Source: Rhodococcus sp. (in: high G+C Gram-positive bacteria)
GTDB taxonomy: Bacteria > Actinomycetota > Actinomycetes > Mycobacteriales > Mycobacteriaceae
Assembly: GCF_049299235.1 (NCBI RefSeq)
Contig: NZ_JBAQXC010000319.1
Span: 2,358-66,357 of the forward strand
Direction: 5' to 3'
Length of the DNA stretch: 64,000 nucleotides
In this document: positions 10,095 to 49,756 of the stretch, in pieces
Numbering within the stretch: position 1 is the first letter of the stretch
Layout: each line of letters opens with the position of its first letter
Notes under the pieces: model-generated
Told to the model about the DNA's origin: nothing
Seen by the model: the letters and a program-made list of their open reading frames with translations, nothing else
Databases searched by the model: none
Translations under genes and position numbers: made by a program

Positions 10095-10110
10095 TTGTAT
10101 ATAAAGAACA
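10095..10110 (-). promoter_or_regulatory. copy of the AT-rich TTCT(A/T)TATA(Y)ACA-type motif (reverse orientation) between divergent KstD-like genes
   Basis: The plus strand reads ttgtatataaagaaca, which is TGTTCTTTATATACAA on the minus strand. It is one of the few AT-rich patches in this window. Confidence 0.3.
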
Positions 10111-10192
10111 GACTTACTCTATTAGTGCACGACGGTTATGGTAATCAGCATCACACCAAGTCACAAGCGTTCGCCCGAACTGGAGGACCGGA

Positions 10193-11881: not shown

Positions 11882-11883
11882 GT

Positions 11884-13461: not shown

Positions 13462-13464
13462 TCC

Positions 13465-13493
13465 GGGCACGCCGCGCGGTGCGCGGCGTGCCC
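13465..13493. terminator. bidirectional intrinsic-terminator-like hairpin
   Basis: Perfect 13-bp stem GGGCACGCCGCGC-ggt-GCGCGGCGTGCCC between convergent genes. Confidence 0.6.
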
Positions 13494-13501
13494 CGCAGGG
13501 A

Positions 13502-23928: not shown

Positions 23929-24097
23929 CGACCGCACCGATCACCGGGATGATCGTCATGAACACGATCGCGACGACGAACAGGGTGATCGTGACCTTCT
24001 TGTCCCACTTGCTCCTGGTACCGGCAGCCGCGGCCAGGAAGAATACGAATCCGATGCAAATGGACGCGATGCCGATCATCACGGGGGTTTCGAGCAT
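23915..24097 (-). CDS. small hydrophobic membrane protein (60 aa)
   Basis: ATG 24097 gives MLETPVMIGIASICIGFVFFLAAAAGTRSKWDKKVTITLFVVAIVFMTIIPVIGAVGFAA, which has two clear TM helices. The upstream part of the 164-aa ORF is Arg/Pro-rich noise. Confidence 0.5.
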   Translation of the reverse strand: MLETPVMIGIASICIGFVFFLAAAAGTRSKWDKKVTITLFVVAIVFMTIIPVIGAVGFAA

Positions 24098-24146
24098 GGC
24101 CCCATCATCGCGTACGCCTGACCGTGCCCGCCGGGCGCCCGGCCCG

Positions 24147-24626
24147 TCACCGGTTGAGTTGTGCGATCCGGCCGCTGAGCGCCGTCGCGAAAGCTGTCCA
24201 TAGTGCGTACGGCGACATTGCCACCCCCGCGGCGGGAACGGCAACGGCGGTGCGTCGCACGAGATCGGCACTGCTCGCGGTGAGCAGTGCCGCCACCACC
24301 GTCGCGGAAACAAGTCGCCCGGCCCGGAAGAACACCCAGGACCATGAGGCATTGAGGGCGAGATTCGCACCGAGCGCAACGATGTAGTTCCGTCGCGCGC
24401 CGAGGTCACGCTGTTCGGTCAACTCGTCGACAGCCGCTGCGGCGACTACCGCGATGTCGGCGTACAGCACGGTCCAGACGACCGGGAAGGTCGCCGGGGA
24501 AGGCTGAAACGAAGGCTTACGCAGTGTGCGGTACCAGTGGGAATCCGCCTCGCGAGAAGCCACGGAACCGACGAACGCAGTCATCGTTGTAGCAGCCACA
24601 GTTCCCAGGACCGTCTTCGGCTTCAT
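24147..24626 (-). CDS. tspO: TspO/MBR family (tryptophan-rich sensory) protein
   Basis: ATG 24626. WYRTLRKPSFQPSPATFPVVWTVLY..., ALNASWSWVFF and a five-helix layout typical of TspO. Confidence 0.85.
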   Translation of the reverse strand: MKPKTVLGTVAATTMTAFVGSVASREADSHWYRTLRKPSFQPSPATFPVVWTVLYADIAVVAAAAVDELTEQRDLGARRNYIVALGANLALNASWSWVFFRAGRLVSATVVAALLTASSADLVRRTAVAVPAAGVAMSPYALWTAFATALSGRIAQLNR

Positions 24627-24893
24627 CGACACAGCGACCTCCCGTTCGACATGCTCTTCTCGCCCGAATACCCCGCACACCCACCGGCTGAAACTCGACA
24701 GGATCAGGGAGTCGGTTGGCGCCCGCGCAGTGACCTGGTGATGGGCGCCTTCAGCCGGTCAGGACGAATGATGGTTCCCACCACCCGGTTCGCCGTGCCG
24801 ACGCCAGGGTGGAAGCGGCGCAGACGCGGCGCGATAGTATCCCGGGCCGGGGCGCCGAACGAGCGCTCGACGCAACCAGGGGGCAGTTCCAGC

Positions 24894-25721
24894 ATGTTCG
24901 TATCGACACGTCTTCGCACGGCCGGCGCGGTGATCGCAGCCTCGGCAGTACTGTTCGGCGCAGGATGCTCCAGTGATGGAAATTCCACGTCGACCGACAG
25001 CGCTTCTGCCGGCAGTATTTCGGCCGACGCCGATTCGTCGGCACAGTCCGCTCTCGATACCGTCCGCGCCGCGTACGAGACCACGGCGAACCAAGAGGTG
25101 CAGCGCGGTCGGATCGAGGCACAGGGCAGCATCGTCACCACAACGATCGACACGTCGCGCGATGTCATCCTGGGGCAGATACCGAATTCGCCGCACGGGC
25201 CGATGCAGGTGCTGTTCGAGGGCGATGACCTCTTTGCACAGTTCACGGATGTGCCGGAGGCCAGCGCTTCCATCCTCGAGGCCGACGTCTGGTATCGCGT
25301 CGATGTCGCCTCGGACCAGACCGGCCAGATGTTCCTCATCCGGGACCTGGTCCGGAATCGGCAGCAGAGCAGCGCGCTCCTGGCCGAATTCACCACCGGC
25401 GCGGAAGAGCAAGGTACCGAGGTCGTCGAGGCCGCCGACGCCACCCGGTTCACTGCCACACTGGATGTCGCGGCCTACGCCGATGCGCTCCTCGAGACGT
25501 TCGCCGATTCGCTGCCCACCGGCCCCGGCACCCCGAGCGCCGACGACATGCGCCGAATCATGATCGAGCAGACGCCTACGTCCCTCGAATTGTGGATCGA
25601 CGACAACGGCCGCATCGTGCGCGAAGTCTTCGCCGGAAACGATACGACGACCTCGTACGACATCGACTTCGTCGTTCCCGAGTTCGACCGCGCGAACGCG
25701 CCACTGGCCCCGATCTCCTGA
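24894..25721 (+). CDS. putative secreted lipoprotein, function unknown
   Basis: ATG 24894 gives MFVSTRLRTAGAVIAASAVLFGAGCSSDG, a signal peptide plus a lipobox-like GAGC. The rest is soluble and acidic, with no family I recognise. Confidence 0.6.
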   Translation: MFVSTRLRTAGAVIAASAVLFGAGCSSDGNSTSTDSASAGSISADADSSAQSALDTVRAAYETTANQEVQRGRIEAQGSIVTTTIDTSRDVILGQIPNSPHGPMQVLFEGDDLFAQFTDVPEASASILEADVWYRVDVASDQTGQMFLIRDLVRNRQQSSALLAEFTTGAEEQGTEVVEAADATRFTATLDVAAYADALLETFADSLPTGPGTPSADDMRRIMIEQTPTSLELWIDDNGRIVREVFAGNDTTTSYDIDFVVPEFDRANAPLAPIS

Positions 25722-25751
25722 CACCCAGCCCTCGGTCGACCCCGCAAAGCA

Positions 25752-25800
25752 GGTGAGGGGAACCATCATTCGGACAAGCCGAATGATGGTTCCCCTCACC
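25752..25800. terminator. very strong hairpin (22-bp perfect stem, 5-nt loop) between convergent genes
   Basis: GGTGAGGGGAACCATCATTCGG-acaag-CCGAATGATGGTTCCCCTCACC. Confidence 0.7.
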
Positions 25801-25826
25801 GGGTGACGCGGTAGATCAGGTGCAGA

Positions 25827-26918
25827 TCAGGACGAAACGAGTGCTTCCCGAGCCTTCTCCTTGCGGTTGCGGTAGATGCTCGACGCGAATGCCGCTCCGA
25901 TCAGGGTGATGCCGACCAGGCCGGTGATCACCTCGGGAACGTGCGTACCGATCGAGTACAGCAGGATCAGCGCGAGCGCACCGATCGCCCAATGCGCGCC
26001 GTGCTCGAGGTACACGTACTCCGACAGCGTGCCCTTGCGCACCAGGAAGATCGTGATCGAACGGACGAACATCGCGCCGATGAAGCCGAGACCGAGAGCG
26101 ATGATGATCGGATCGGACGTGATCGCGAACGCGCCGATGACACCGTCGAACGAGAACGACGCATCGAGAACCTCGAGGTAGAGGAACAGGAAGAAGCCTG
26201 CCTTGCCGGTGGCCTTCGCCAGACCCGACGGACCGCCGCTGGTTTCCTCACCTTCCTCGGGCATGTGGAACATCTCGCCGAGACCGTTGACCGCGATGTA
26301 GGTGATCATGCCGAGCACACCGGCGATCATCACCGTCGACACCTTGTCGTCGGGTGCGATGACCGTGGCAGTGACGAGCAGCAGCGCCGCCGCGACGACG
26401 ACCTCGAGTTGGTCGAGCTTGCCTGCCTTCCCGAGTGGGCGTTCGATCCACCGCAACCAGTGGATGTCGCGTTCCTCGAAGATGAAGTGCAGGAACAGCA
26501 TCAGCAGGAACATGCCACCGAACGCCGCGATCTGCGGATGTGCGTCGGTGATGAGTGTTTCGTAGCTGGGGCTACCGTCCGGGAAGTAGGCGGCACCGTC
26601 GGCGGGCGGATTCAACGCGAGGTTCAGCGCGTCGACCGGTCCGAGACCGGATGCGACCCAGACGATCAGGAGCGGGAACACCAGGCGCATACCGAACACG
26701 GCGATGAGGATGCCGACGGTGAGGAAGATCTTCTGCCAGAACTCGCTCATCCGCTGCAGCACGGTCGCATTGATGACCGCGTTGTCGAACGAGAGCGACA
26801 CCTCGAGGATGCCGAGGATGACGCAGAGGAACAGTGCCTGGGGGCCGCCGTAGAGGAAGGCGACCACCAGTGAGACGACGGTGACGGCAAACGACGCCCC
26901 GAATATTCGCAGTATCAC
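25827..26918 (-). CDS. DUF475 / TerC-related integral membrane protein
   Basis: 363 aa with a GTG start. EVSLSFDNAVINA and LEVLDASFSFDGVIGAFA are duplicated motifs within a multi-helix membrane protein, as in DUF475 members of ter clusters. Adjacent to TerD. Confidence 0.8.
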   Translation of the reverse strand: MILRIFGASFAVTVVSLVVAFLYGGPQALFLCVILGILEVSLSFDNAVINATVLQRMSEFWQKIFLTVGILIAVFGMRLVFPLLIVWVASGLGPVDALNLALNPPADGAAYFPDGSPSYETLITDAHPQIAAFGGMFLLMLFLHFIFEERDIHWLRWIERPLGKAGKLDQLEVVVAAALLLVTATVIAPDDKVSTVMIAGVLGMITYIAVNGLGEMFHMPEEGEETSGGPSGLAKATGKAGFFLFLYLEVLDASFSFDGVIGAFAITSDPIIIALGLGFIGAMFVRSITIFLVRKGTLSEYVYLEHGAHWAIGALALILLYSIGTHVPEVITGLVGITLIGAAFASSIYRNRKEKAREALVSS

Positions 26919-26984
26919 GACTGCGGCCTTTCTTATCGATAGTCAGGTCGATGCAGCGAGGTACTGCAAACAGGAGACAAGAAT

Positions 26985-27013
26985 CCGGTCCCGGCGGATA
27001 TGACCGGGACCGG
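26985..27013. terminator. hairpin downstream of terD
   Basis: CCGGTCCCGG-cggatatga-CCGGGACCGG, a 10-bp perfect stem 18 nt after the terD stop (minus strand). Confidence 0.5.
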
Positions 27014-27030
27014 ATCGGGTTGACGACGAA

Positions 27031-27606
27031 TCAGACGTTGACGCCGTAGTCGCGGGCGATGCCCGCCAGGCCGGACGCGTAGCCCTGGCCGACCGCGCGG
27101 AACTTCCACTCGGCACCGTTGCGGTAGAGCTCGCCGAACACCATGGCGGTCTCGGTGGAGGCGTCCTCGGAGAGGTCGTAGCGGGCCAGCTCGTTGCCGT
27201 TGGCGCGGTCGACGACGCGAATGTAGGCGTTGCGGACCTGACCGAACGACTGGCTGCGGGTCTCGGCATCGTAGATCGACACCGGGAAGAAGATGCTCTC
27301 GATATTCGCGGGGACTGCCGCGAGGTCGACGTTGATGACCTCGTCGTCGCCGTCGCCCTCGCCGGTGCGGTTGTCGCCGGCGTGCTCGATCGAGCCGTCC
27401 GGCGTCTTCATGTTGTTGAAGAACACGAAGTGCTGGTCGGAGATGGCCTTCTTGTCGGCGCCCGTCGCGATCGCGCTGGCGTCGAGGTCGAAATCGGTGC
27501 CGGTGGTCGTGCGGACATCCCAGCCGAGGCCGACGGCCACGGCGGTGAGATTCGGCGCTTCCTTGGTGAGGGAAACATTGCCGCCCTTGGTCAAGCTGAC
27601 ACCCAT
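27031..27606 (-). CDS. terD: TerD family stress protein (canonical, Ca-binding motif present)
   Basis: 191 aa. [15 protein letters not shown]..., [39 protein letters not shown]. Confidence 0.95.
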
Positions 27607-27722
27607 TCGGGGTCCTTTCGTAAGTCGGCGCGTCCGAACGGACCCGCCCGATTTGCGCGTGTCCTTCCCACACTAATGGGATATCCGCTACCGCGCTTCT
27701 GCCCGCCGTCCCTGCATCGGCG

Positions 27723-28955
27723 ATGCCCACACCGCCGGCCAGTACCATTCGGATCGTGGCGAGCAGATTCACGCGCCGGCTTTTCGGTGGCGGACCGATC
27801 GAGGATCCCGCGGCTCTCCGCGCCCACGACACGATGGTGGCGGCCTTCCTCGACATGGACCGACGGCAGTCGATCGCGGAGGCCGCGGTCACCGCCTCGC
27901 GTGAGCTGGAGCCGGAGCGGAACGTGGATCGCACGTGGACACCGATCCGCGAAGCGTGCTACCGAGCCGCCGAGACCTACCTGCAACTTGCCCGCACCGA
28001 ACCCGATCAACCGCTGGCGACTGCCGCCGCGTACGAGCATGCGACAACCATGATCGGCTCCGCAACGAGAACGTTGGATGAATTCTACGGATACAACCGT
28101 GCCCATTTCGAGCACGCGATGTCGGTTGCCGCTGCCGTTCCGCACATCGCACAACGTGCACGGGCCGACGCACACTCCGCCACCCGGAACCTGCACGCAC
28201 CCGACAACGCCGCCTTCGCCGGCTATCGGTCGGTGCAGACCGCGGCAGACGCACTCGATACCGCACTGAGCGCACTCGACGCGGCGGTCGGGACGGTCGC
28301 GATGCGGGAAAGCGCGGCGCGGGTCGGACAAGCGGCAGCGGAACTACAGGCCGCGCTCGAACTGGCACCGGCACAATCCGACCGGGCGCGCAACACTGTG
28401 TCGTCCGTCACAACTAGGATCGCAGCGGCCCACACCCGATCAGCGGGTCTCACCCCGGCCTACTCGGCGCTGCTCCGCGAATTCAACGCGGCGAGTTCCG
28501 CGGATCTTGCCGGCAACGATCGGCAGGCCACCGAGCTTCTCGCGCACGCCGAGGACAGCCTGACCGCGGCACGCAGCGAGTTGTCGGCCGGCCGGCCCGA
28601 GCATGCGCTCGACCACGCCGCCGCCGCGCGGTCGCACATCACCGTCGCCGAGCGCAACATCGACGCTGTCACCGACCGACTCGCGACTCTGCGTGCGGTG
28701 CGGGAGAATCCCGCTGCGAAGGTCGATGCCGTCCGCTTCCGGCTACGTGACGCACAGCACCTCGCGGTGCAACGTGGGATGACCGCACAATGGGGGTCGG
28801 TACTCGACGCGCAACTCGCCCGGATCGACAGAGCCGTCGATTCACTGACGGGTGTTCACCCGGACTACTGGGCGTTTGTGTGCGACCTCGACGCGGTGAC
28901 GGACTTCATCACCGGAGTGGTGCAACGAATGAGAGGACGGACGGACGGCCCATGA
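27723..28955 (+). CDS. uncharacterised Ala-rich all-helical protein, first gene of the Ter-associated operon
   Basis: 410-aa ORF. Its stop overlaps the next start (ATGA at 28952-28955). Composition and heptad-like A/L/R spacing suggest long helices. I recognise no family motif. Confidence 0.7.
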   Translation: MPTPPASTIRIVASRFTRRLFGGGPIEDPAALRAHDTMVAAFLDMDRRQSIAEAAVTASRELEPERNVDRTWTPIREACYRAAETYLQLARTEPDQPLATAAAYEHATTMIGSATRTLDEFYGYNRAHFEHAMSVAAAVPHIAQRARADAHSATRNLHAPDNAAFAGYRSVQTAADALDTALSALDAAVGTVAMRESAARVGQAAAELQAALELAPAQSDRARNTVSSVTTRIAAAHTRSAGLTPAYSALLREFNAASSADLAGNDRQATELLAHAEDSLTAARSELSAGRPEHALDHAAAARSHITVAERNIDAVTDRLATLRAVRENPAAKVDAVRFRLRDAQHLAVQRGMTAQWGSVLDAQLARIDRAVDSLTGVHPDYWAFVCDLDAVTDFITGVVQRMRGRTDGP

Positions 28956-30142
28956 CTCGGGGGACCTTCACGGAAGTGCGCGGCACACGCCACTTCCGTC
29001 ACCTGGATCCGGCGACGCAGAGCGCATTGTTCCTCCACCACCCACAACCGTTCGACGACAGCGACGACCGTGAACGCCTTGCGGTGGCGCTCGGGGCGAC
29101 CCTGTACGTGCCGGCGACCCGCCGCGATCTGGCCGCGACCGTCACACGCCGCGCAGCCGAGGGCGTGACGTCGATGGTTCTCGACCTCGAGGACGCGGTC
29201 GCCGACGACGAGGTCGAGGAAGGGCTGCGCAACACCGTCGACACCCTCGACCGTCTGGCCGGGACCGAGGCCGCGAACATGCTGCTGTTCGTGCGGGTCC
29301 GCACGCCCGACGGCGTCGAGCGCATCGCGGCCGACCTCGGCGACGGCGTCGGCGCCCTCACCGGGTTCGTGCTGCCCAAGTTCGGCGCGGACACCGGCCG
29401 CGCGTTCCTCGACGCGGTCTCCGCGGCATCGGCGCGACTGGGCAAGCGGCTGTACGCGATGCCGGTACTCGAGTCCAGCGACCTCGTGCACCGGCAGACC
29501 CGCGACCACGAATTACAGTCCGTCTCCGCTCTGCTTGCCGAACACCGGCAGCAGGTGCTGGCCGTGCGGATCGGCGCGACCGACATGTGCGGCACATTCG
29601 GGATCCGCCGCGACCGGGACCTCACCATCTACGACGTGCGGGTCGTCGTCGACGTCATCGCCGATGTCGTCAATTATCTGGGTCGGACAGACGGCACCGG
29701 TTTCGTCATCACCGGGCCGGTGTGGGAGTACTTCGCCGACCACGAACGCATGTTCCGGCCGATGCTGCGGGCCACTCCGTTCGAGGAACACGACGCCGTG
29801 CTGTTCCGCCAGCAACTCGTCAGCCGCGACCTCGACGGGCTGCTCCGCGAGATCACCCTGGACCGCGCGAACGGCATCCACGGCAAGACCGTGATCCATC
29901 CGTCGCACGTGGCGGCGGTGCACGCGCTGTCTGCGGTGACCCACGAGGAATACCACGACGCCGTCGACATTCTCGGCGGCGACACCGGAGGGGTCCGTCC
30001 GTCCGACTATCGGAACAAGATGAACGAACGCCGCCCGCACCGCACCTGGGCGCAGCAGACGGTTCTGCGTGCGTCGGTGTTCGGTGTCACCAACAAGGGA
30101 GTCACGTTCGTGGACCTGCTCACCGCCCTGGTGCACAAATGA
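28952..30142 (+). CDS. HpcH/HpaI aldolase / citrate-lyase-beta-like TIM-barrel C-C lyase (Ter-associated)
   Basis: ATG 28952. ..LGATLYVPATR.., MVLDLEDAV.., FVLPKF.., GIHGKTVIHPSHV are typical of the HpcH/CitE fold. Lies in the operon with the PRTases and HAD. Confidence 0.75.
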   Translation: MTRGTFTEVRGTRHFRHLDPATQSALFLHHPQPFDDSDDRERLAVALGATLYVPATRRDLAATVTRRAAEGVTSMVLDLEDAVADDEVEEGLRNTVDTLDRLAGTEAANMLLFVRVRTPDGVERIAADLGDGVGALTGFVLPKFGADTGRAFLDAVSAASARLGKRLYAMPVLESSDLVHRQTRDHELQSVSALLAEHRQQVLAVRIGATDMCGTFGIRRDRDLTIYDVRVVVDVIADVVNYLGRTDGTGFVITGPVWEYFADHERMFRPMLRATPFEEHDAVLFRQQLVSRDLDGLLREITLDRANGIHGKTVIHPSHVAAVHALSAVTHEEYHDAVDILGGDTGGVRPSDYRNKMNERRPHRTWAQQTVLRASVFGVTNKGVTFVDLLTALVHK

Positions 30143-31455
30143 GCACGGCCGCACCGACCGGCATCGTCGAAACCCTTCAGATACCCTGGGCTACAGAGAA
30201 ATTCGGCCTGACGCTGCATCACCACGACTCGACCACCGGACACCGGGTTACGGATCTGGTCCGACCCGGACTGCGCCGCAACCCGCGGCGCGCACACCTG
30301 CTGGTGTCCACCGTGCTGGGCAAGCACATTCCGACCGATCCCGCGGTCGTGCTCGACGCAGGAAACCGGCTCGGCGACCGGGTGGCCGAACTGCTCGGCG
30401 AGGATGCCCCGGTAGCGGTCGTCCTCGGCTTCGCCGAGACCGCGACCGGCCTGGGCCATTGTGTGGCCACACGCATCGGCGCGGCCTACTATCTGCACTC
30501 CACTCGCCGCGACGTTCCGGGCGCCGACACGTTCGCCGGATTCGAGGAGGGCCACTCGCACGCCACCTCCCATCTACTCCAGCCGACGTCGCCGGACCTG
30601 TTCGCGAACACCGCACCGCTCGTGCTCGTCGACGACGAAATCTCCACTGGAGCAACCGCACTCGATGCCATCCGCGCGCTCCACCGGAACCATCCGCGCT
30701 CCCGGTACGTGATCGCCTCGCTCGTCGACATGCGCGCCGAGGAGAATCACCGCGCGGCCGCACAGACTGCCGCCGATCTCGGCGCACGGATCGAGCACGT
30801 GTCGCTCGCGACCGGCCGGGCGGTGATCCCCGAGGGCACCACCGCGCGCGTGACGGCGCTTTCCGACCCCGAGCTGAATCCGCGCGCGGCACAACGGGGT
30901 ACCGCACGGTTCGTTACTCTTCCTTGGCCTGCAACGGTTCCCGATGGCGGGAGGCACGGATTCCGCGGCGCCGACACCGCAGGTTTCGACGCCGCGATCA
31001 CGGCAGCTGCCGCAGCCCTCACCGCCGCACTCGAGCCCGGCCACCCGGCCATCGTGATCGGACACGAGGAACTGATGTACCTGCCACTCCGGCTCGCGGA
31101 CACGCTCGCCGCGCACGGCGTCGCCACCCGGTTCCAGACCACCACCCGGTCACCCGGCTACGTCCTCGACGTACCCGGCTATCCGCTGCGACGCGGATTT
31201 GCTTTCCTCGCACCGGAATACGTCTCCGAGACACATGAAGAAGAGGCACCGCGCTATCTGTACAACGCGCAGTGGCCCGGTGCCGACCACAAGCCCACGC
31301 TCGTACTCGTGATCGACAGCCCCGCCGACACCGATCGACTTCGCGCGGACGGCGGGCTCGTCGATGTACTCACCGCAGCGGGCGAAGATGTCGTCGTCGC
31401 CACGGTTTCCGCGACCGACCCGGTCGCACTTCGCACCAGCAGGGAGGCACCGTGA
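30139..31455 (+). CDS. phosphoribosyltransferase-domain protein with long C-terminal (TRSP-like) extension
   Basis: ATG 30139 overlaps the upstream TGA. The PRPP-binding loop is LVLVDDEISTGATA. About 200 further residues are of unknown role. Confidence 0.75.
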   Translation: MSTAAPTGIVETLQIPWATEKFGLTLHHHDSTTGHRVTDLVRPGLRRNPRRAHLLVSTVLGKHIPTDPAVVLDAGNRLGDRVAELLGEDAPVAVVLGFAETATGLGHCVATRIGAAYYLHSTRRDVPGADTFAGFEEGHSHATSHLLQPTSPDLFANTAPLVLVDDEISTGATALDAIRALHRNHPRSRYVIASLVDMRAEENHRAAAQTAADLGARIEHVSLATGRAVIPEGTTARVTALSDPELNPRAAQRGTARFVTLPWPATVPDGGRHGFRGADTAGFDAAITAAAAALTAALEPGHPAIVIGHEELMYLPLRLADTLAAHGVATRFQTTTRSPGYVLDVPGYPLRRGFAFLAPEYVSETHEEEAPRYLYNAQWPGADHKPTLVLVIDSPADTDRLRADGGLVDVLTAAGEDVVVATVSATDPVALRTSREAP

Positions 31456-32558
31456 CGGCACCGTTGACAGGACCCGAGTTCGGATCGTACGTCGCCGACG
31501 ACGTGACCTGGCTGCTCAAGGACCTCTCGCACGTCGACCTCGAAGCCGACGTCACCGAACGGGAATTGCGCATTCAAGCGGGTCTGGCGCACTACGCGGA
31601 GTCGCTGCCGGTGGAGTACCGGCCCGACGCGGAGTATCGCGAACTGTTCGACAAGGTGCTCGCCGAGACCGCGGGGAGGCTGGCACGCGCCGTCGGAGCC
31701 GTGACCGAACTCCTTCTCGCAGAACGCGGCCCGAACCTGACACTGGTGTCGCTGGCCCGTGCCGGCACCCCGGTCGGTGTCCTGATCCGGCGGTGGGCAC
31801 AGCTCCATCACGGATTGTCGTTGCCGCACTATGCGATCTCGATCGTGCGCGGCCGCGGCATCGACGCCGCCGCGCTCGACCACATCACCGCACGGCACGA
31901 TCCGGCATCGGTGGTCTTCGTCGACGGGTGGACCGGCAAAGGCGCGATCGCACGCGAACTGTCGGCTGCGCTTGCCGAGTACGCGGCGGCGGGCGGCCCG
32001 ACCTTGTCCGACGATCTCGCGGTTCTGGCCGATCCCGGCCGGTGTGTGCGCACGTACGGCACCCGCGACGACTTCCTCATCGCATCTGCCTGCCTGAATT
32101 CCACTGTGTCCGGTTTGGTCTCGCGGACAGTCCTCAACGACACCCTGATCGGTCCCGGCGAGTTCCACGGCGCGAAGTTCTACTCCGAACTCGCCGACGA
32201 GGACGTGTCCGCAACACTGATCGACGCAGTGTGCGCCGAATTCGGCGACCGAGACAGCGCGCTCGCCGACGCCCGGCGTGTCATGGACTCCGATCGCACA
32301 CCGACCTGGACGGGTTGGGCATCGGTGGAGCAGATCCGGGCGCGGTACGGGATCTCGACCGTCAACTTCGTCAAGCCGGGCGTGGGCGAAACGACACGGG
32401 TGTTGCTGCGGCGGGTGCCGTGGAAGGTGCTCGTCCGGGAGGCCGACGCCCCCGAGCACGCCCACATCCGGATGCTCGCCGCCGCGCGCGGTGTCCCGGT
32501 CGAGGTGGTTCCCGACCTCGCCTATTCGTGCATGGGATTGATCAAGGACCTGCCGTGA
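31452..32558 (+). CDS. StiP-type protein (second PRTase-like domain, annotated in databases as cysteine protease StiP family)
   Basis: GTG 31452 overlaps the upstream TGA. ..LVSLARAGTPVGVLIRRW.., VVFVDGWTGKGAIAREL is a PRTase-like loop. The position matches the Ter biosynthetic module. Confidence 0.7.
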   Translation: MTAPLTGPEFGSYVADDVTWLLKDLSHVDLEADVTERELRIQAGLAHYAESLPVEYRPDAEYRELFDKVLAETAGRLARAVGAVTELLLAERGPNLTLVSLARAGTPVGVLIRRWAQLHHGLSLPHYAISIVRGRGIDAAALDHITARHDPASVVFVDGWTGKGAIARELSAALAEYAAAGGPTLSDDLAVLADPGRCVRTYGTRDDFLIASACLNSTVSGLVSRTVLNDTLIGPGEFHGAKFYSELADEDVSATLIDAVCAEFGDRDSALADARRVMDSDRTPTWTGWASVEQIRARYGISTVNFVKPGVGETTRVLLRRVPWKVLVREADAPEHAHIRMLAAARGVPVEVVPDLAYSCMGLIKDLP

Positions 32559-33391
32559 CCACCGCACTGATCGCCTCGGATCTCGATCGCACACTCATCT
32601 ATTCGCGCGCGGCGATGACGCCGACTCAGCTCGACCGCACCGACCTGCTGTGCGTCGAATATTTCGACGGTGCGCCACTGTCGTATCTGTCGGACGCGGC
32701 CGCACATCGGTTGCGGGAGCTGAGCGCGGCGGTACGTGTGGTTCCGACGACCACCCGCACCCCCGAACAGTTCGGGCGTATCGCGCTGCCGGGTGGACCG
32801 TGGCGGTATGCGATCACCAGCAACGGTGGCGCGATCCTTGTCGACGGCGCACCGGATCCCGTGTGGCGCAGTGCGCTCGAAGACACGCTCCGTACCGATG
32901 GTGCCGGGCTCGACGAGGTGCTCACCGCGCTGCGGGCCCGTATCTCACCGGACTGGGTGAGCAAGCTGCGGATCGCCGACGACCTGTTCTGCTATCTCGT
33001 TGTCGACGTCGACGCCCAGCCTGCCGAGTTCCTCGCCGAATGGGACGCGTGGTGCCGTGCCCGTGGCTGGGGAGCGTCCCAGCAGGGCCGGAAGATCTAC
33101 ACGGTCCCCGACTGCGTGTGCAAGAGCCACGCGGTCGCCGAGGTGCACCGGCGGCTCGTCGCGGACGGGGATCTCGACGAAAATTCCCCGGTGTTCGCGG
33201 CCGGCGACGGTGCCCTCGACGCGCGGATGCTCGAAGCGGCGGATGCCGGGATCCGTCCGCGTCACGGCGAACTCGAGGCACTCGGTTGGCAGCATCCGAC
33301 CGTTGTGGTCACCGACACCGCCGGGGTGTCGGCGGGCGAGGAAATTCTCGCCTGGTTTGCCGAGTTCGCCCGCATTCCGGCCGGTTCGTAG
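32555..33391 (+). CDS. HAD-superfamily phosphatase
   Basis: GTG 32555 overlaps the upstream TGA. HAD motif I is LIASDLDRTLIY, followed by TTRT and a late GDGALDARML motif. Confidence 0.8.
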   Translation: MTTALIASDLDRTLIYSRAAMTPTQLDRTDLLCVEYFDGAPLSYLSDAAAHRLRELSAAVRVVPTTTRTPEQFGRIALPGGPWRYAITSNGGAILVDGAPDPVWRSALEDTLRTDGAGLDEVLTALRARISPDWVSKLRIADDLFCYLVVDVDAQPAEFLAEWDAWCRARGWGASQQGRKIYTVPDCVCKSHAVAEVHRRLVADGDLDENSPVFAAGDGALDARMLEAADAGIRPRHGELEALGWQHPTVVVTDTAGVSAGEEILAWFAEFARIPAGS

Positions 33392-33452
33392 AGTGGACCG
33401 AGATCGACCGATGCTTCCATCGCCCGCCAGTGTCGCCTATCAGTGAGGACGA

Positions 33453-34793
33453 TTGACCTTGACCACTCCGCTCGCCAAGGGCCAGAACGGCCCGATCACC
33501 GCCTCCGACGTGGTCGTCTCGCTCGAGCTGACCACACCGGCCGATTTGTCCGCTCTGCTCGTCAAGGCCGACGGCAAGGTCCGGTCGGACGCCGACTTCG
33601 TGTTCTTCAATCAGCCCACCGGCCCGGGTGTGCGTCTGGTTCCCGGCGCGCCGGGGCAGGCTGCGTCGCTTGCGGTGTCGCTCGGTGACGTCCCCACGGA
33701 GATCGAGCAGGTCCGGGCCGTGATCACCCTCGACGACCCGTCGAGTACGTTCGGGCGTTTCGCACCGCCCGCCGCGCGGATCAGTGACGCGGCGGGCGCG
33801 GTGCTGTACGAGTACCGCATCGAGGGGTTGAGCAGCGAGTCCATCGTCATCGCGCTCGAGTTGTACCGGCGTCAGGGCACGTGGAAGGTCCGGGCCGTCG
33901 GGCAGGGATACGCCGGGGGGTTCGCCGCGCTGGTCACCGACCACGGTGTTTCGGTCGACGACGCACCCGCCGCACCTGCACCTGCACCACAGCCCACCGC
34001 GCCCGCTGCGCCCCAGCAGCCTGTCCAGTCCCAGCAGCAGTACGCCCCGCCCGTCCCTCCGCAGCCGGCCGCACCCCAGCAGTACAGCCAGCCCCAGCAG
34101 TACGGCCAGCCCGCGCAGCCCCAGTACGGTCAGCCCCAGCCCCAGTACGGTCAGCCCCAGCCCCAGCCCCAGGCGCCTGCGGCGCCCCCGGCCGAAGTCA
34201 GTCTCACCAAGAACCGCCCGGTCAGTCTCGTCAAGGGACAGCGGGTGACCTTGCGTAAGGACGAGGGGGTTGCCCTCACGTTCCTGAAGATGGGTCTCGG
34301 GTGGGACCCGGTCGAGAAGCGTGGACTGTTCGGCAACCGCTCGGCGGACGTCGATCTGGACGCCTCGGCGGTCCTGTTCGCCGACCACAACATCGTCGAC
34401 GTCGCGTACTACGGCCAGCTGACATCGAAGGACGGCTCGATTCAGCACCAGGGTGACAATCTCACCGGCGAAGGCGCCGGTGACGACGAGGTCGTACTCA
34501 TCGACCTGACACGTGTGCCGCCGCACGTCAACACGATCATGCTCATCGTCACCTCCTACAAGGGTCACACGTTCGAGCAGGTCAAGAACGCGTTCTGCCG
34601 GCTCGTCGACGGGACGAACAACGCAGAGTTGGCCCGCTACACGCTGCAGGGCGGTATGCCGTTCACCGGCATGGTGATGTCGAAGCTGTACCGGCAGGGA
34701 CAGGAATGGAAACTGCAAGCCGTCGGCGAGGGCGTCCAGGCCAAGCACCCGGGTGAGGCCGCGCCGCAACTCGGCCGGTTCCTGGCAACGTAG
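33453..34793 (+). CDS. two-domain TerD protein (degenerate N-domain, P/Q-rich linker, canonical C-domain)
   Basis: TTG 33453 follows GAGGAC. The N-domain ends [13 protein letters not shown] and lacks the Ca motif. The C-domain has GLGWD, DLDAS, GDNLTGEGAGDDEVVLIDL and WKLQAVGEG. Confidence 0.9.
   Translation: MTLTTPLAKGQNGPITASDVVVSLELTTPADLSALLVKADGKVRSDADFVFFNQPTGPGVRLVPGAPGQAASLAVSLGDVPTEIEQVRAVITLDDPSSTFGRFAPPAARISDAAGAVLYEYRIEGLSSESIVIALELYRRQGTWKVRAVGQGYAGGFAALVTDHGVSVDDAPAAPAPAPQPTAPAAPQQPVQSQQQYAPPVPPQPAAPQQYSQPQQYGQPAQPQYGQPQPQYGQPQPQPQAPAAPPAEVSLTKNRPVSLVKGQRVTLRKDEGVALTFLKMGLGWDPVEKRGLFGNRSADVDLDASAVLFADHNIVDVAYYGQLTSKDGSIQHQGDNLTGEGAGDDEVVLIDLTRVPPHVNTIMLIVTSYKGHTFEQVKNAFCRLVDGTNNAELARYTLQGGMPFTGMVMSKLYRQGQEWKLQAVGEGVQAKHPGEAAPQLGRFLAT
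33958..34195 (+). repeat. low-complexity P/Q/A/Y-rich linker with imperfect QPQ(Q)YG repeats
   Basis: Encodes APAAPAPAPQP...QQYSQPQQYGQPAQPQYGQPQPQYGQPQPQPQAPAAPP. The nucleotide level shows repeated cagccccagtacggt units. Confidence 0.9.
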
Positions 34794-34796
34794 CCG

Positions 34797-36308
34797 ATGA
34801 CCGTCCAGTTCCGGGCAGGGCAGAATGCTCCGCTCGCAGCGCCGTCTGTCCGGTTCACGGCGACCGCGTCGGTACCGGTGGATCTGTGCGCGCTGGTCGT
34901 CGACTCGGGACTGAGAGTGACATCGTCTCAGGACGTCGTGTTCTACAACCAGAAACACACTGCCGGTGTCCGACTCGACGGCGATGCGCTCGTCGTCGAG
35001 CCGGCCCGGCTGCGGCCGGACGCGGAGAAGGTGCTGTGCGTGCTCGGAGCCGACCGGGCGACCTCGGCCGAGACCACACTCACCGATGCGGCGGGAATGC
35101 CGTTGGCGACGTTCCGCATCGAACCGGTCGCGGGTGAGACGGCGCTGCTGTGCTGGGAGATCTACCGGCGCGGCGGTGATTGGAAGATCCGGGCACTGGG
35201 GCAAGGCTATTCGGGTGGTCTGGCCGAGTTGTTCACCGTGCACGGTGTCGATGTGGATGATCCCGAGCCGGCACCGCAGGTGCAGCAGTCGCCGGAACAC
35301 GAGGCGCTGCCGATCGAATCCGACGTGTCGTGTGCCCGCATGTGGCAAATTTTCGAGGACGCATCCCGATCAACCGCCGCGTTCGTCTCGGCCCACGAGT
35401 ATGCGCAACACCGCTTGGACATGGAATTGTCTGCGGCCGTGGCCGATCCGTCTTCCCGCACCGGTAGCGGTGCCGACCAGGCCCGCGCCTTGGCACATCG
35501 GCGCTGCGACGAACTCGTCGCTGCGGCGCAGTCCCGGTACGATGCCGACTCCGCGCTCTTGACCACCGAACTCGGTGCGCTCGACGGGTCGTTGCCTGCG
35601 GCACTCGCACCGTGGAATGCCCCCACGTGGAACCAGCACGGCGGCGTATCCGACGGAGTCAGGCTCGGCGAGCTCACCGCACCGGACCGGGGGCCGCTGC
35701 GGGTGCCGTTCTGCGTGCCACTGCCCCTGAGCCGGCCGTTGTGGGTGAACGGTGACGCCGATGTTGCCGCGCCGGTGGCGTCGGCGCTCGCGTTGAGACT
35801 GCTCGCATCCCGACCCGGGTCGCTGCTCGATGTCGTCGACCCGGCGGGTGCGCTGAGACAACTGTGCGAACTCGCCGCTCCGGTTCTCGCGGGTCCACCC
35901 GTCCTCGATGTGTCCGGTGTCGCCGCGAAGTTGAAGGGACTTGCCGAAGCGGCGGAACTGGATTCGCTGGCGGTGTCGGCGGGTGTCGATGCGCACCGGC
36001 ACGAACCTCGCGTGTTGATCATCTCCGGGATACCGCACGGATACGGTAGCGACGATCTGATGCACCTCGTCCGGATCGTGCAACTCGCGTCCGCCCAGAG
36101 CATGTCGGTGGTCATCACGGGTATGGACGATCCGCACGTCGACAGCCCGGCATATCGTATCCTCGCCGACGCATCCCAGCACATCCCCGCGGACAAGGGC
36201 CAGTTCGCCGATCCGTGGACTCGAACGGAATGGCAGTTCGTCCCGGACTCCGGGCCATCCGACCCGGAACGGATCCGGGCGGTGGTGCGGTCGATGGAGC
36301 GCCGCTGA
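34797..36308 (+). CDS. TerD-like domain fused to ~350-aa uncharacterised C-terminal region
   Basis: 503 aa. The N-terminal 150 aa is TerD-like (..CWEIYRRGGDWKIRALGQGYSGG..) without the Ca motif. The remainder matches no family I recognise. The gene starts 3 nt after the upstream stop. Confidence 0.85.
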   Translation: MTVQFRAGQNAPLAAPSVRFTATASVPVDLCALVVDSGLRVTSSQDVVFYNQKHTAGVRLDGDALVVEPARLRPDAEKVLCVLGADRATSAETTLTDAAGMPLATFRIEPVAGETALLCWEIYRRGGDWKIRALGQGYSGGLAELFTVHGVDVDDPEPAPQVQQSPEHEALPIESDVSCARMWQIFEDASRSTAAFVSAHEYAQHRLDMELSAAVADPSSRTGSGADQARALAHRRCDELVAAAQSRYDADSALLTTELGALDGSLPAALAPWNAPTWNQHGGVSDGVRLGELTAPDRGPLRVPFCVPLPLSRPLWVNGDADVAAPVASALALRLLASRPGSLLDVVDPAGALRQLCELAAPVLAGPPVLDVSGVAAKLKGLAEAAELDSLAVSAGVDAHRHEPRVLIISGIPHGYGSDDLMHLVRIVQLASAQSMSVVITGMDDPHVDSPAYRILADASQHIPADKGQFADPWTRTEWQFVPDSGPSDPERIRAVVRSMERR

Positions 36309-36327
36309 CCGGTTCGGCCCGGTGCGA

Positions 36328-37068
36328 TCACATGAAGCGGCCGCCGGTGACCTCGAGGACGGCACCTGTCATGTAGGAAGACATGTCGGACGCCAAAAAC
36401 AGTGCCACGGAAGCGATCTCGTCGACCTCACCCGGCCGGCCCATCGGGATCTCGCTCATCTTCTGATCCCACGCCTTCTGTGGCATCGCCTCGGTCATCG
36501 CGGACCGGATCAGCCCCGGCTGGATCGCGTTGATGCGAACACCGTGATGCGCCATCTCCTTCGCAGCAGCCTTCGTCAAGCCCACGATGCCGGCTTTCGC
36601 GGCCGAATAGTTGGTCTGGCCGACCAAACCGACCTTGCCGGACAGCGACGAGATATTCACGATCGCACCGCGCTTGGCTTCACGCATGATCGCCGACGCC
36701 TTGCGGGTGCCGTTCCAGGTGCCCTTCAGGTGCACCGAGATCACCAGATCGAAATCCTCTTCGGTCATCGTCCGCATCGTCGCGTCGCGGGTGATACCGG
36801 CATTGTTGACGACGACGTCGAGCGCACCGAATCCATCGACCGCCTCGGCGAGCAACGTGTCCCAATCCGCGGATTCGACGACATTCGCCTTCACCGCACG
36901 CGCGACGTCACGACTGCCGAGTTTCTCGGCCGCAGCGGTCGCGGCGTCGAGGTCGAGGTCGCCGATGACGACCTTGGCGCCTTGCGCGACGAACGACCGG
37001 GCGATCGCGAAACCGATGCCCTGAGCGCCACCGGTGATCACGGCGGTACGGTTCTCCAGCAAAGACAT
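36328..37068 (-). CDS. fabG: SDR family 3-oxoacyl-ACP reductase (FabG-like)
   Basis: ATG 37068. [18 protein letters not shown] and the YSAAK catalytic motif. Confidence 0.85.
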
Positions 37069-37268
37069 GCGAATCCTTTCGGCATGCGACCTTCCGGATT
37101 GTGCACAGGGAAGGCACACGAGCGGTGGGTGCGGGTGCTCCGCACGAGTTGACGACCCGAATATAGCGGCGGAACGACTCCGGCGGCCCCGCCGGCATCA
37201 TCAGCGTCTATGTGGATTTTTCTCATTCGTATTGGACACAACGAGCGCGACGATCGAGGCTGGAACCC

Positions 37269-38465
37269 ATGATCACTTCGTCGAGAGCCAACACACCCAC
37301 GCCGGCCACCGAGGTCGACGACGACGATTTCCGGAAGATCCTCGCCCAGACACGCGCGTTCGTGCGTACCGTGGTGGTCCCGCGCGAACAGGAGATCGCA
37401 GATGCCGATGCGATCCCGGACGACATCCGCGGCGCCGCCAAGGAGATGGGACTGTTCGGATACGCGATCCCCCAGGCGTGGGGCGGCCTCGGACTGAATC
37501 TGCAGCAGGACGTCGAACTGGCGATGGAACTCGGTTACACGACGCTGGCGTTGCGTTCGATGTTCGGCACGAACAACGGCATCGCCGGGCAGGTACTCGT
37601 CAACTTCGGAACCGATGAACAGAAGTCGCAGTGGCTCGAAGGAATCGCTGCCGGCGAGATCGTCGCATCGTTCGCGCTCACCGAGCCCGGGGCAGGTTCC
37701 AACCCGGCGGGCCTGCGCACCAGGGCGGTGCGCGACGGCGACGACTGGGTGATCAACGGCGAGAAACGCTTCATCACCAACGCTCCCCTGGCAGACCTGT
37801 TCGTCGTCTTCGCCCGCACCAGACCCGCGGACGAGAACGGCACCGGTATTGCGGTTTTTCTCGTACCCGCCGACACCGAGGGCGTGCACGTCGGCACCAA
37901 AGACGCGAAGATGGGCCAGGAAGGTGCCTGGACCGCGGATGTCGCATTCACCGATGTGCGGGCGTCCGCCGCTGCCCTGGTCGGAGGCAGCGAGGACGTC
38001 GGATACACAGCGGCGATGGTGTCGCTCGCGCGTGGTCGCGTGCACATCGCCGCGCTGGCGGTCGGTCAGGCCCAGCGCGCGCTCGACGAGTCGGTCTCCT
38101 ACGCGGCCACCGCCACCCAGGGCGGCGACCCGATCGGTAACTTCCAGCTGGTACAGGCGATGATCGCCGATCAGCAGACCGGCGTGATGGCCGGTCGCGC
38201 GCTCGTGCGCGATGCGGCGAAGGCGTGGGTGGAGGAAACCGATCGTCGTATCGCGCCGTCGGCCGCGAAGCTGTTCTGCACCGAAATGGTGGGCAAGGTC
38301 GCCGACCTCGCGGTGCAGATCCACGGCGGTCCCGGCTACATGCGCGGCGTTCCGGTCGAGCGCATCTACCGTGACGTCCGCCTGCTGCGCCTGTACGAGG
38401 GCACCAGCGAGATCCAGCGTCTGATCATCGGCGGCGGACTCGTCAAGCAGGCTCAGCGCGGCTGA
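37269..38465 (+). CDS. acyl-CoA dehydrogenase
   Basis: ATG 37269. ..ASFALTEPGAGSNPAG.., DGDDWVINGEKRFITNA, C-terminal YEGTSEIQRLIIG. Confidence 0.9.
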   Translation: MITSSRANTPTPATEVDDDDFRKILAQTRAFVRTVVVPREQEIADADAIPDDIRGAAKEMGLFGYAIPQAWGGLGLNLQQDVELAMELGYTTLALRSMFGTNNGIAGQVLVNFGTDEQKSQWLEGIAAGEIVASFALTEPGAGSNPAGLRTRAVRDGDDWVINGEKRFITNAPLADLFVVFARTRPADENGTGIAVFLVPADTEGVHVGTKDAKMGQEGAWTADVAFTDVRASAAALVGGSEDVGYTAAMVSLARGRVHIAALAVGQAQRALDESVSYAATATQGGDPIGNFQLVQAMIADQQTGVMAGRALVRDAAKAWVEETDRRIAPSAAKLFCTEMVGKVADLAVQIHGGPGYMRGVPVERIYRDVRLLRLYEGTSEIQRLIIGGGLVKQAQRG

Positions 38466-39491: not shown

Positions 39492-39583
39492 GAACCACCG
39501 GGGCGGGTGGCGGGGTGACCGGACAGGGCGAGTGGCGGATCCGACCGGGCGGATGCGGCCGACACCCGCTATCGTTTCGCGCC

Positions 39584-40204
39584 ATGCGACTGCTCGAGAA
39601 ATCGAAACGGGTCATCGAGGCTCAGTTGAGCAATACGAGCATCCGGGCACTGTCGGGATCGATGGTTGCCTACGAGGGACAGGTGAGCTTCAAGTCGGCC
39701 GGGTTCGGTGGAGGCGAGGGTGTGCTCGCGGGTCTTCGACAGCGGGCGACCGGCGAGGGCCTGTCTTTGATGGAGGCCGGCGGCACCGGCGTCGTCTACC
39801 TCGCGCACCGGGGCCGGAACGTGACCGTACTGGAACTGAACAACGAGACGCTGCAGGTCGAATCCGAGCAGTTGCTGGCTCTCAACGGAAACCTCACCAC
39901 CAACGTCACCTTCGCCGGGGTTCGAGGCGGCATGAGCGGCCAGGGCTTGTTCACCACGACGGTGACGGGCAGCGGTCAGGTCGCACTGCTGTCTTCCGGC
40001 GGGCCGCTGATCCACCTGGAGGTCTCACCCCAGTACCCCCTGGTCGTCGACCCGGACGCCTTCGTCTGCGCGAAGGGGCAGCTGACGCAGTCGTTCGTCA
40101 CCGACGTCTCGTGGCGGTCCGCCATCGGCCAAGGCAGCGGCGAGGCGTTCTCACTGAAGTGGGACGGCATGGGTGTCGTGTCCATCCAGCCCGCGGAACG
40201 GTAG
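39584..40204 (+). CDS. AIM24 (DUF124/TIGR00266-like) family protein 1
   Basis: ATG 39584, 206 aa. The pattern ..GSMVAYEGQV.., LLALNGNL.., GQGLFTTTVTGSGQVALLSSG, VDPDAFV, GEAFSLKWDGMGVVSIQ is typical of AIM24. Confidence 0.8.
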   Translation: MRLLEKSKRVIEAQLSNTSIRALSGSMVAYEGQVSFKSAGFGGGEGVLAGLRQRATGEGLSLMEAGGTGVVYLAHRGRNVTVLELNNETLQVESEQLLALNGNLTTNVTFAGVRGGMSGQGLFTTTVTGSGQVALLSSGGPLIHLEVSPQYPLVVDPDAFVCAKGQLTQSFVTDVSWRSAIGQGSGEAFSLKWDGMGVVSIQPAER

Positions 40205-40210
40205 GACACC

Positions 40211-40903
40211 ATGTCGTTCACCAAGGTCAACAACAAGGTCGTTCGCGTAGACCTGAACCAGTCCGGTCCGATCGTCGCCCGCCGCGGAGCAATGCTCTTC
40301 TACACGGGTGCAGTACATTTCGCTCCTCACAACTCTCCCGGTGGCGGTATGGCAGGCGGAATCGCATCGATGGCCGGTCGCATGATGCAGGGCGAGCACG
40401 AAGCCACGATGGTCGCGCAAGGAAACGGCGTGGTGCACTACGGGTTCCGCGGGCTCGAAACGCACATCGTCGACATGTCCGCCGGCGGGGAACTGCGGGC
40501 CGAGGCGTCGCGGTTGCTCGCACACACGTCGGGCCTGCAGAGCGCGATCGTGCAGACCTCGGCCGCACCTGCTGCCGCGGGTGGTGGTGGCGGCCTGTTC
40601 GGCGCGTTGCGCGGTGCTGCCACCGGAATGGTCACGGGTACAGGGATGTTCACCACCCAGTTGGCCGGGTACGGGGCCGCTGTCCTTCTCGCGCACGGCG
40701 GGGTCATCGAACTCCAGGTCGGCGGACCTGCACCGGTGTTCGTCGATCCGCAGGCGTTCGTCGCAGCGCTCGGCCCGGTACGAACCGAGTTGAAGTCGGC
40801 GATGAGCTGGCGCAACGCCGGTCGCTCCGGCGGCGAAAGCATGCAACTCGAGTGCACCGGGCAGGGCATCGTCTACGTGCAGGCATCGGAGGAGAAGCTG
40901 TGA
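40211..40903 (+). CDS. AIM24 family protein 2
   Basis: 230 aa. ..RRGAMLFYTG.., GMFTTQLAGYGAAVLLAHG, VDPQAFVA, ESMQLECTGQGIVYVQ. Contains a Gly/Ala-rich insert. Confidence 0.8.
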   Translation: MSFTKVNNKVVRVDLNQSGPIVARRGAMLFYTGAVHFAPHNSPGGGMAGGIASMAGRMMQGEHEATMVAQGNGVVHYGFRGLETHIVDMSAGGELRAEASRLLAHTSGLQSAIVQTSAAPAAAGGGGGLFGALRGAATGMVTGTGMFTTQLAGYGAAVLLAHGGVIELQVGGPAPVFVDPQAFVAALGPVRTELKSAMSWRNAGRSGGESMQLECTGQGIVYVQASEEKL

Positions 40904-41658: not shown

Positions 41659-41725
41659 GCAGGTCGAGCACGGCGGCACCGTTGCGATGTGATGACGATC
41701 ACAGGATAGCCAGTCCTAAGTACGC

Positions 41726-48970: not shown

Positions 48971-49112
48971 GAGGATCAACTCCAGTGGTGGGAGAACTGT
49001 GGCCGGGTAGGACGGGGAGTCGGCGAACTTCTCAGCTCGAGCCGTGAGGGATCCGGACGGTGTCCGATGGCGCGGCGAATCCCGCGCCACCGGAACGGAT
49101 TCCGTCGACGAA

Positions 49113-49676: not shown

Positions 49677-49756
49677 GTAGCGCCTCATTCGTTCTCGATG
49701 GGTTTGACAGTTATCGACGTTAACGCTCCTCGATTGATTGTGCCAATCGATTGTTC

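Follow-up and report, generated by a model that had tools for sequence, protein, structure and literature searches.

Does the Ter-type stress cluster of a Rhodococcus genome carry the enzymes for the metabolite that Ter systems have long been predicted to make, and, if so, is it a peculiar or a typical copy? Ter systems occur widely, in pathogens and soil bacteria as well as on plasmids and in jumbo phages, and connections have been drawn to tellurite, phages, colicins and host-associated stress. Anantharaman, Iyer and Aravind (2012), whose view is repeated in PMC7824862 and PMC11994780, predicted that a Ter-associated module of enzymes produces a nucleoside-like metabolite. In the model given in PMC7824862 (2021), biosynthesis of a signal nucleoside is combined with sensing by TerD/TerB, a membrane response through TerC and sub-membrane structures, and PMC8115787 (2021) still terms the biosynthetic cluster putative. 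We addressed the question in a stretch of 64,000 nucleotides from Rhodococcus sp. (contig NZ_JBAQXC010000319.1, positions 2,358 to 66,357; hereafter, the window), where a DUF475/TerC-like membrane gene and a terD gene lie divergent from seven plus-strand genes for a helical protein, four putative enzymes and two TerD-domain proteins (Table 1). Our results indicate that the locus is an ordinary copy of a chromosomal Ter stress locus typical of Mycobacteriales. Judged by the families of its products, it carries the module predicted in 2012, in a form without ATP-grasp that is the normal one in actinobacteria.

The enzymes belong to Ter-specific families

The families first assigned to the enzymes are correct, as profile hidden Markov models place the products in Ter-specific families with E-values from 1e-29 to 1e-122. 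The lyase matches Pfam C-C_Bond_Lyase (PF15617, 7e-122). Its nearest solved relatives are citrate lyase beta-like proteins (8e-05), and it matches the NCBIfam models RipC and citE weakly and far under their cutoffs; an assignment to unrelated primary-metabolism families did not emerge from these searches. The following gene encodes a PRTase_2 phosphoribosyltransferase (PRTase; PF15609, 8e-67) extended by a TRSP domain (PF12500, 2e-29), and a five-way alignment with plasmid and phage homologues revealed an invariant phosphoribosyl pyrophosphate (PRPP)-loop motif, VDDExxTGxT, as well as an invariant TRSP motif. The next product joins StiP (PF11202, 4e-105) to PELOTA_1 (PF15608, 6e-36), a domain whose only, and weak, match among solved structures is ribosomal protein eL8, of the L7Ae fold. 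In an alignment of five StiP sequences, from the window and from actinobacterial, Klebsiella-plasmid and phage homologues, the motifs FVDGWTGKG and SLxRAGxPxG are invariant and no cysteine is. Because no cysteine is invariant and the PRTase-type motifs are kept, we do not favour the name "cysteine protease" for this protein; the PRPP-loop motifs appear intact in both PRTase-like proteins, supporting PRTase chemistry.

The fourth enzyme gene has no Pfam match above threshold and its NCBIfam HAD-IIB match (3e-5) is below cutoff. Nevertheless, its best solved relative is a trehalose-6-phosphate phosphatase (1e-6 over residues 5-228), its translation contains the motifs DLDRT (motif I) and GDGALD (motif IV), and a gene annotated as "HAD family hydrolase", in the equivalent place on a Prescottella equi plasmid, shares 59% identity with it. 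The window therefore contains four components of the published module, namely PRTase_2 with TRSP, StiP with PELOTA_1, the C-C lyase and a HAD phosphatase, and lacks the ATP-grasp of its five-enzyme form.

The architecture without ATP-grasp is shared across the lineage

The absence of an ATP-grasp gene from the window, noted in the initial annotation, was borne out by tblastn with the Klebsiella Ter ATP-grasp as a query, which yielded no match in the window and only three marginal, partial matches over 1.65 Mb of related loci (best E=0.004 over 84 aa). These loci were obtained with a profile of the helical protein family, which has relatives in 458 species-representative genomes; we retrieved 80 loci, from Rhodococcus, Nocardia, Antrihabitans and Mycobacterium, and took a census of their genes by tblastn. 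All 80 share, as far as the contigs reach, a core that reads DUF475 and TerD on one strand, then the helical protein, lyase, PRTase_2, StiP and HAD on the other. The lack of ATP-grasp and the unassignable first gene had been taken as possible signs of a variant pathway in this copy. The ATP-grasp-less architecture is indeed real, and the first gene does fall outside the curated families, but neither is special to this copy: both are standard in Mycobacteriales, as shown by the common core and by the relatives of the first gene in 458 genomes, and hence the idea of a variant pathway in this copy is only partly supported.

Beyond the core, the content of the locus varies. The two-TerD protein follows the core in about 47 of the 80 loci, and a protein of the type encoded by the last gene (34797-36308) is present in about 30, while a TerX-like gene, absent in the window, follows DUF475 in 37. 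The same gene set occurs in Nocardia brasiliensis. In Thermomonospora curvata the helical gene is divergent from a single operon with all the other genes, and the linkage of the Ter set has therefore outlasted rearrangement. An expanded locus, with TerB, two extra TerD, a TerX-like and two TerF-like TerD-vWA genes, and with a zeta toxin gene nearby, lies on the 432-kb P. equi plasmid p1-WH99 (1-15330), so the actinobacterial form is also mobile. The genes flanking the cluster are not conserved among related loci and, in the window, are ordinary metabolic genes.

Tightly coupled genes and a probable leaderless start

Direct inspection of the open reading frames (ORFs) bore out the coordinates given initially for the nine genes, together with four stop/start overlaps of 4 nt, ATGA at 28952 and 30139 and GTGA at 31452 and 32555, and gaps of 61 nt (33392-33452) and 3 nt (34794-34796) between the last genes; the start of the first plus-strand gene was the one point revised (see below). 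The sequence GAGGA lies 4 nt 5' of the TTG start of the two-TerD gene. The overlap between lyase and PRTase_2 is kept in 76 of 79 related loci, that between StiP and HAD in 56/78 and that between the helical protein and the lyase in 26/80. PRTase_2 and StiP overlap by 4 nt in 46/78 loci and are fused into one ORF in another 31 (ca. 40%), mostly from Nocardia. Since the 4-nt overlaps recur across related loci, the tight junctions of the plus-strand genes exceed chance. The fusion, in turn, argues strongly for joint action of the two PRTase-like proteins. Gene calls based on the G+C content of third codon positions (GC3) fell on the wrong strand at 30007-31116 and 32945-33295, and were overridden by the Pfam matches.

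The divergent region contains, in an alignment of close relatives, a conserved block CAGTACCATTCGG followed by GTGGCGAGC. A -10-like TACCAT at 27743-27748 ends 7 nt before a GTG at 27756, and 79 of the 80 related loci have an in-frame GTG preceded by a TANNNT hexamer (TACCAT or TACGAT in most) whose end lies 6-8 nt upstream. Such a GTG start with a closely spaced TANNNT is a known signature of leaderless transcripts in actinobacteria. Moreover, the Prescottella orthologue of the helical protein aligns from residue 1 at 27756. Given this geometry, the conserved block and the Prescottella alignment, the gene most likely starts at GTG 27756 (399 aa) rather than at the ATG 27723 of the initial annotation, which it replaces, or at the ATG 27834 of the 373-aa database protein; likewise, the mRNA of the plus-strand operon is most likely leaderless and would begin at this same GTG.

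Scans for other signals were less informative. A sigma-70 consensus scan returned promoter-like sites only at the frequency expected from shuffled sequence. Terminator-like sites exceeded that expectation (10 found vs 4.3), most of them inside coding sequence, and none was found after the last gene. One terminator-like hairpin, ATCCGCCGGGACCGGAT, with a T-rich tail (26999-26983), lies on the minus strand between terD and the DUF475 gene (26919-27030) and might, by limiting read-through, keep expression of the membrane gene below that of terD. Over 24000-38000, Rfam returned no riboswitch or known RNA, with two matches at chance level only. We also considered an RNA structure in the terD 5' untranslated region; an inverted repeat appeared to covary in close relatives, and no consensus structure was found across 30 loci, so this candidate was dropped.

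TerD, DUF475 and two accessory families

The minus-strand pair supplies the Ter core, a TerD-domain protein with an adjacent membrane protein of the TerC superfamily. The membrane gene matches Pfam DUF475 (1e-132) and TerC (1e-15) and, above cutoff, NCBIfam PRK14013.1-3 (586 bits). It lies 112 nt downstream of terD, and the pair is adjacent in the 80 related loci wherever the contig reaches. The TerD protein matches Pfam TerD over its full length (6.5e-85) and its gene has a GC3 of 0.93.

The two-TerD protein has two Pfam TerD stretches (3e-77), a divergent N-terminal domain and a canonical C-terminal one. The former shares 66% identity with its N-terminal counterpart in a P. equi TerF-like vWA protein. 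The acidic motif GDNxTGEGxGDDE, which we take, from prior knowledge of TerD structures, to be a Ca2+ site, can be read in the translations of the stand-alone TerD and of the canonical domain of the two-TerD protein; the last two gene products lack it in their N-terminal TerD-like domains. Between the two domains, the two-TerD protein has a linker (33960-34200) of about 80 residues of low complexity, rich in Pro and Gln, with repeated QPQ and QYGQP units.

In the product of the last gene, Pfam TerD covers the N-terminal part only (4e-17). Its AlphaFold2 (AF2) model, with a predicted local distance difference test score (pLDDT) of 90.5, comprises the TerD domain (1-150), a long helical hairpin (175-263) and an alpha/beta domain of P-loop fold (287-503). 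This last domain matched, in Foldseek, EssC ATPases (9e-6), the FtsK motor (6e-5) and EccC (1e-4), including the "DUF" domain of EccC5. The fold is thus shared with FtsK, EssC and EccC, but the catalytic residues are not, and we rejected its identification as an ATPase of the FtsK/HerA type. Among 35 aligned family members, from Rhodococcus to Streptomyces, none has Lys/Ser at the Walker A position, which reads G-D-A-D-V-A-A; close Rhodococcus relatives, this copy included, have Ser, Ala or Gly instead of the Walker B Asp. Owing to the family-wide absence of the Walker A lysine and to the loss of the Walker B Asp, the domain appears to be a catalytically dead pseudo-ATPase, and plausibly serves as an assembly or partner-binding module. 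Its likeness is in particular to the degenerate ATPase-like domains of EccC from type VII secretion. It further differs from FtsK, EssC and EccC in its fusion to TerD via the helical hairpin, and in having neither transmembrane segments nor secretion genes nearby.

The first plus-strand gene encodes a protein with no Pfam, NCBIfam or PADLOC family, whose best database match is a hypothetical protein from a Rhodococcus sp. metagenome-assembled genome (100% identity over the 373-aa form). It and the TerD-pseudoATPase are two accessory families without a curated family model. The helical family is small: 1.84 billion proteins contain 213 representatives of it at 50% identity. Every named member that we encountered is actinobacterial, and the gene was next to Ter genes in all contexts examined. 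An AF2 model built with 34 homologues (pLDDT 87.6), from which the conserved N-terminal peptide was left out, consists of long helices only. Foldseek found nothing significant for it in PDB, with EzrA at rank 5 (E=1.6, TM 0.26). The best PDB match of the family profile is also EzrA (4uy3, E=0.024), and distant family members show sub-threshold matches to Pfam EzrA (1e-5 to 4e-4). EzrA, a septation ring regulator, is likewise elongated and all-helical, with spectrin-like repeats, and is the best, though weak, match in both sequence and fold; however, the helical protein occurs in a Ter context and not in cell division, and is not a demonstrated homologue. Indeed, we rejected its identification as EzrA (PF06160), since no Pfam score exceeded 24 bits (cutoff 39.6), and consider this a resemblance only. 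TelA (PF05816) was rejected as well, with no Pfam TelA match at E<=10 and an hhalign probability of 0.6%, the latter a test of moderate strength because its target was a shallow alignment of 7 phage and metagenome sequences, seeded from a Caulobacter phage Ter cluster. We noticed no transmembrane anchor, although no formal prediction was made. Judging from the model, the protein is probably an EzrA-like elongated scaffold. Its N-terminus (27756-27800), VASRFTRRLFGGG, is a basic-aromatic peptide conserved in Rhodococcus relatives, with the consensus VASRWTRRLFGGG, and may be a membrane-targeting or partner-binding tag.

A proposed pathway and its alternatives

Upon the family memberships, gene order, conservation and gene coupling established here, we propose a mechanism to which we assign a probability of roughly 60%, and which includes the organization of the locus as two divergent transcription units, one for TerD and DUF475 and the other for the helical protein, the enzymes and the TerD proteins. 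The probably leaderless plus-strand message would be translated in a tightly coupled way. Following the Aravind-group model and the chemistry of the enzyme families, PRPP would be coupled by the enzymes to a base-like acceptor, with the lyase modifying either the acceptor or the adduct, and loss of the 5'-phosphate through the HAD enzyme would leave a small molecule resembling a ribonucleoside. This product would be sensed or bound by TerD domains, which would relay the signal to the membrane component and the scaffold, the helical protein perhaps playing a role analogous to that of the sub-membrane TelA and TerF proteins of the model (PMC7824862). Because this lineage appears to use no ATP-grasp step, the acceptor would probably be a metabolite already present in the cell and not one assembled by amide ligation.

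Several points weigh against this proposal. The chemistry of the pathway is taken over from the published model and from what the enzyme families do elsewhere, and the role of the scaffold from its fold and a faint likeness to EzrA. Neither the PRTase_2 nor the StiP product has a solved relative detectable by sequence, and our literature search found no paper identifying the product, the substrate or the trigger, in agreement with the initial claim that neither product nor trigger has been demonstrated experimentally. In addition, the PELOTA_1 domain hints at RNA rather than at a free small molecule. If so, the enzymes could modify a macromolecule, with StiP-PELOTA binding RNA or protein, the PRTases adding phosphoribosyl and the HAD enzyme trimming phosphate, so that the modified RNA alters translation under stress. 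The fusion of an RNA-binding-type domain to StiP, its eL8 likeness and the lack of any report of a free Ter metabolite in the literature that we searched would all agree with this idea. We nonetheless regard it as unlikely, since canonical PRPP-loop motifs and a HAD of the sugar-phosphate type fit small-molecule nucleotide chemistry, PELOTA-like folds might just as well accommodate a ribose-phosphate ligand, and the published model favours a diffusible signal (PMC7824862). Still less probable is that StiP acts as a cysteine protease in a proteolytic or regulatory stress module without biosynthetic function. The Pfam/NCBI name goes back to a study of Acinetobacter baylyi which, as cited in PMC11994780, reported protease activity, altered cell morphology and tellurite sensitivity; against it stand the StiP alignment described above, limited to five sequences, and the fusion of StiP to a bona fide PRTase_2 in 31/78 loci.

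Two other readings concern the context of the genes. The enzymes might belong to ordinary primary metabolism (citrate or itaconate lyase, purine/pyrimidine salvage and a sugar-phosphate phosphatase) and lie beside ter by chance, as the weak matches to RipC, citE, citrate lyase beta structures and trehalose-6-phosphate phosphatase might suggest. Yet these matches are far under family cutoffs compared with the Ter-specific Pfam values, the linkage to TerD/DUF475 holds in 80/80 loci as far as contigs reach and survives the Thermomonospora rearrangement, and the flanking genes are not conserved; we give this reading hardly any credence. The locus might instead be mainly a mobile anti-phage defence with a nucleotide signal, like the plasmid ter determinants that inhibit phage, a proposal about biological role that is compatible with the biosynthetic mechanism. 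In this regard, the ter genes of R478 inhibit phage, a Klebsiella terC mutant has modest phage phenotypes, with larger plaques (PMC12054061, 2025), Ter modules occur in jumbo phages (PMC7824862), and the expanded P. equi copy lies on a plasmid beside a zeta toxin gene. A primary role in defence is nevertheless improbable here. A PADLOC scan gave only a marginal match (PRTase_III-A, E=0.0027 over 47 residues), and with metabolic flanks and even base composition in the window, the antiviral angle raised initially has no local support; also, the relatives of the helical protein in 458 species genomes and the constant core in 80 loci look like vertically inherited housekeeping stress physiology.

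Comparison with known Ter systems

The enterobacterial ter loci of Klebsiella pneumoniae IncFIB plasmids, R478 and E. coli O157 contain the same four enzyme families, divergent from a TerD/TerC unit. On the Klebsiella plasmid, terZABCDE is divergent from ATP-grasp, PRTase_2, HAD, StiP, lyase and DUF4236, followed by TerY/TerY-C/PP2C/kinase genes. Its PRTase_2, StiP and lyase are 31-37% identical to those of the window; the Klebsiella HAD showed no significant similarity to the window. The Klebsiella operon thus starts with ATP-grasp, whereas the window has none and its order is helical protein, lyase, PRTase_2, StiP and HAD; the membrane partner is DUF475, not TerC proper, and there is no terZ, terA or terB.

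A close parallel is found in Bacillus altitudinis 3W19, whose yceC-H-type cluster also contains an ATP-grasp-less four-gene module beside TerD and TerC, so that the outline of a lyase-PRTase-StiP-HAD module without ATP-grasp was already published (PMC11994780). However, YceG and the TelA-like YceH close the Bacillus cluster, whereas the actinobacterial one begins with the non-TelA helical protein and may end with the TerD-TerD and TerD-pseudoATPase proteins. In the jumbo phage vB_AbaM_ME3 of Acinetobacter, a single block (6865-13873) contains vWA, TerC-like, TerD, PRTase_2, HAD and StiP-like genes with no lyase or ATP-grasp, an even more reduced module.

Layout and neighbourhood of the locus

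The features of the locus are listed in Table 1. Base composition does not shift at the Ter cluster, and the window as a whole has a G+C content of about 66%.

Table 1. Features of the Ter locus in the window and the basis of each assignment
Feature	Coordinates	Strand	Basis
DUF475/TerC-family integral membrane protein, 363 aa	25827-26918	-	Pfam, NCBIfam
Single-domain TerD, 191 aa	27031-27606	-	Pfam, full length
Divergent promoter region (putative)	27607-27755		Conserved block, -10-like TACCAT
Elongated all-helical Ter-associated protein, 399 aa from the most likely start, GTG 27756	27756-28955	+	No curated family; AF2 model
Ter-type C-C bond lyase, HpcH/citrate-lyase-beta TIM-barrel fold, 396 aa	28952-30142	+	Pfam PF15617
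PRTase_2 phosphoribosyltransferase with C-terminal TRSP, 438 aa	30139-31455	+	Pfam PF15609, PF12500
StiP-family PRTase-like protein with C-terminal PELOTA_1, 368 aa	31452-32558	+	Pfam PF11202, PF15608
HAD-IIB-type phosphatase, 278 aa	32555-33391	+	Solved relative, motifs, orthologue
Two-TerD-domain protein, 446 aa	33453-34793	+	Pfam TerD, two stretches
Protein with TerD, helical hairpin and FtsK/EssC/EccC-like domain	34797-36308	+	Pfam, AF2, Foldseek

About 3 kb downstream of the cluster there are three adjacent genes of the AIM24/DUF124 family (39515-41679), two identified by Pfam and the third by position. AIM24 genes lie within 10 kb in 31 of the 80 related loci, and also in N. brasiliensis, but not in Thermomonospora; their proximity could reflect conserved synteny or a loose functional link. 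Further away, on the minus strand, is an ahpC-ahpF pair (47375-49688), for a peroxiredoxin and alkyl hydroperoxide reductase subunit F. AhpC has 191 aa and its gene a GC3 of 0.93, the same length and GC3 as the TerD gene, which had led us to suspect a second TerD at 49113-49688 that turned out to be AhpC. The very high GC3 of both genes suggests that TerD and AhpC are highly expressed. Downstream of the DUF475 gene, the region 24537-25799 has long frames on both strands (394 aa on the plus and 346 aa on the minus strand) with no Pfam match.

Implications

What is new here is modest: a lineage-wide four-enzyme architecture, two accessory families without models, a probable leaderless start and the frequent fusion of PRTase_2 and StiP. 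The window itself holds a routine copy that leaves the overall picture of Ter unchanged. A bolder and, at this stage, doubtful reading is that actinobacteria have a Ter-specific effector arm of their own, in which the EzrA-like helical protein and the TerD-coiled-coil-pseudo-FtsK protein would form, with DUF475, a sub-membrane scaffold under the control of a ribonucleoside-type second messenger, made from an ordinary base by the four-enzyme, ATP-grasp-free pathway. If true, Rhodococcus, Nocardia and some mycobacteria would offer a tractable system for finding the Ter metabolite, sought since the prediction of 2012, and its receptor. In any case, the actinobacterial form needs four enzymes only, which makes it a simple system for an old question; the natural PRTase_2-StiP fusion is a convenient single polypeptide for reconstitution, and the helical and TerD-pseudoATPase families are candidate partners.

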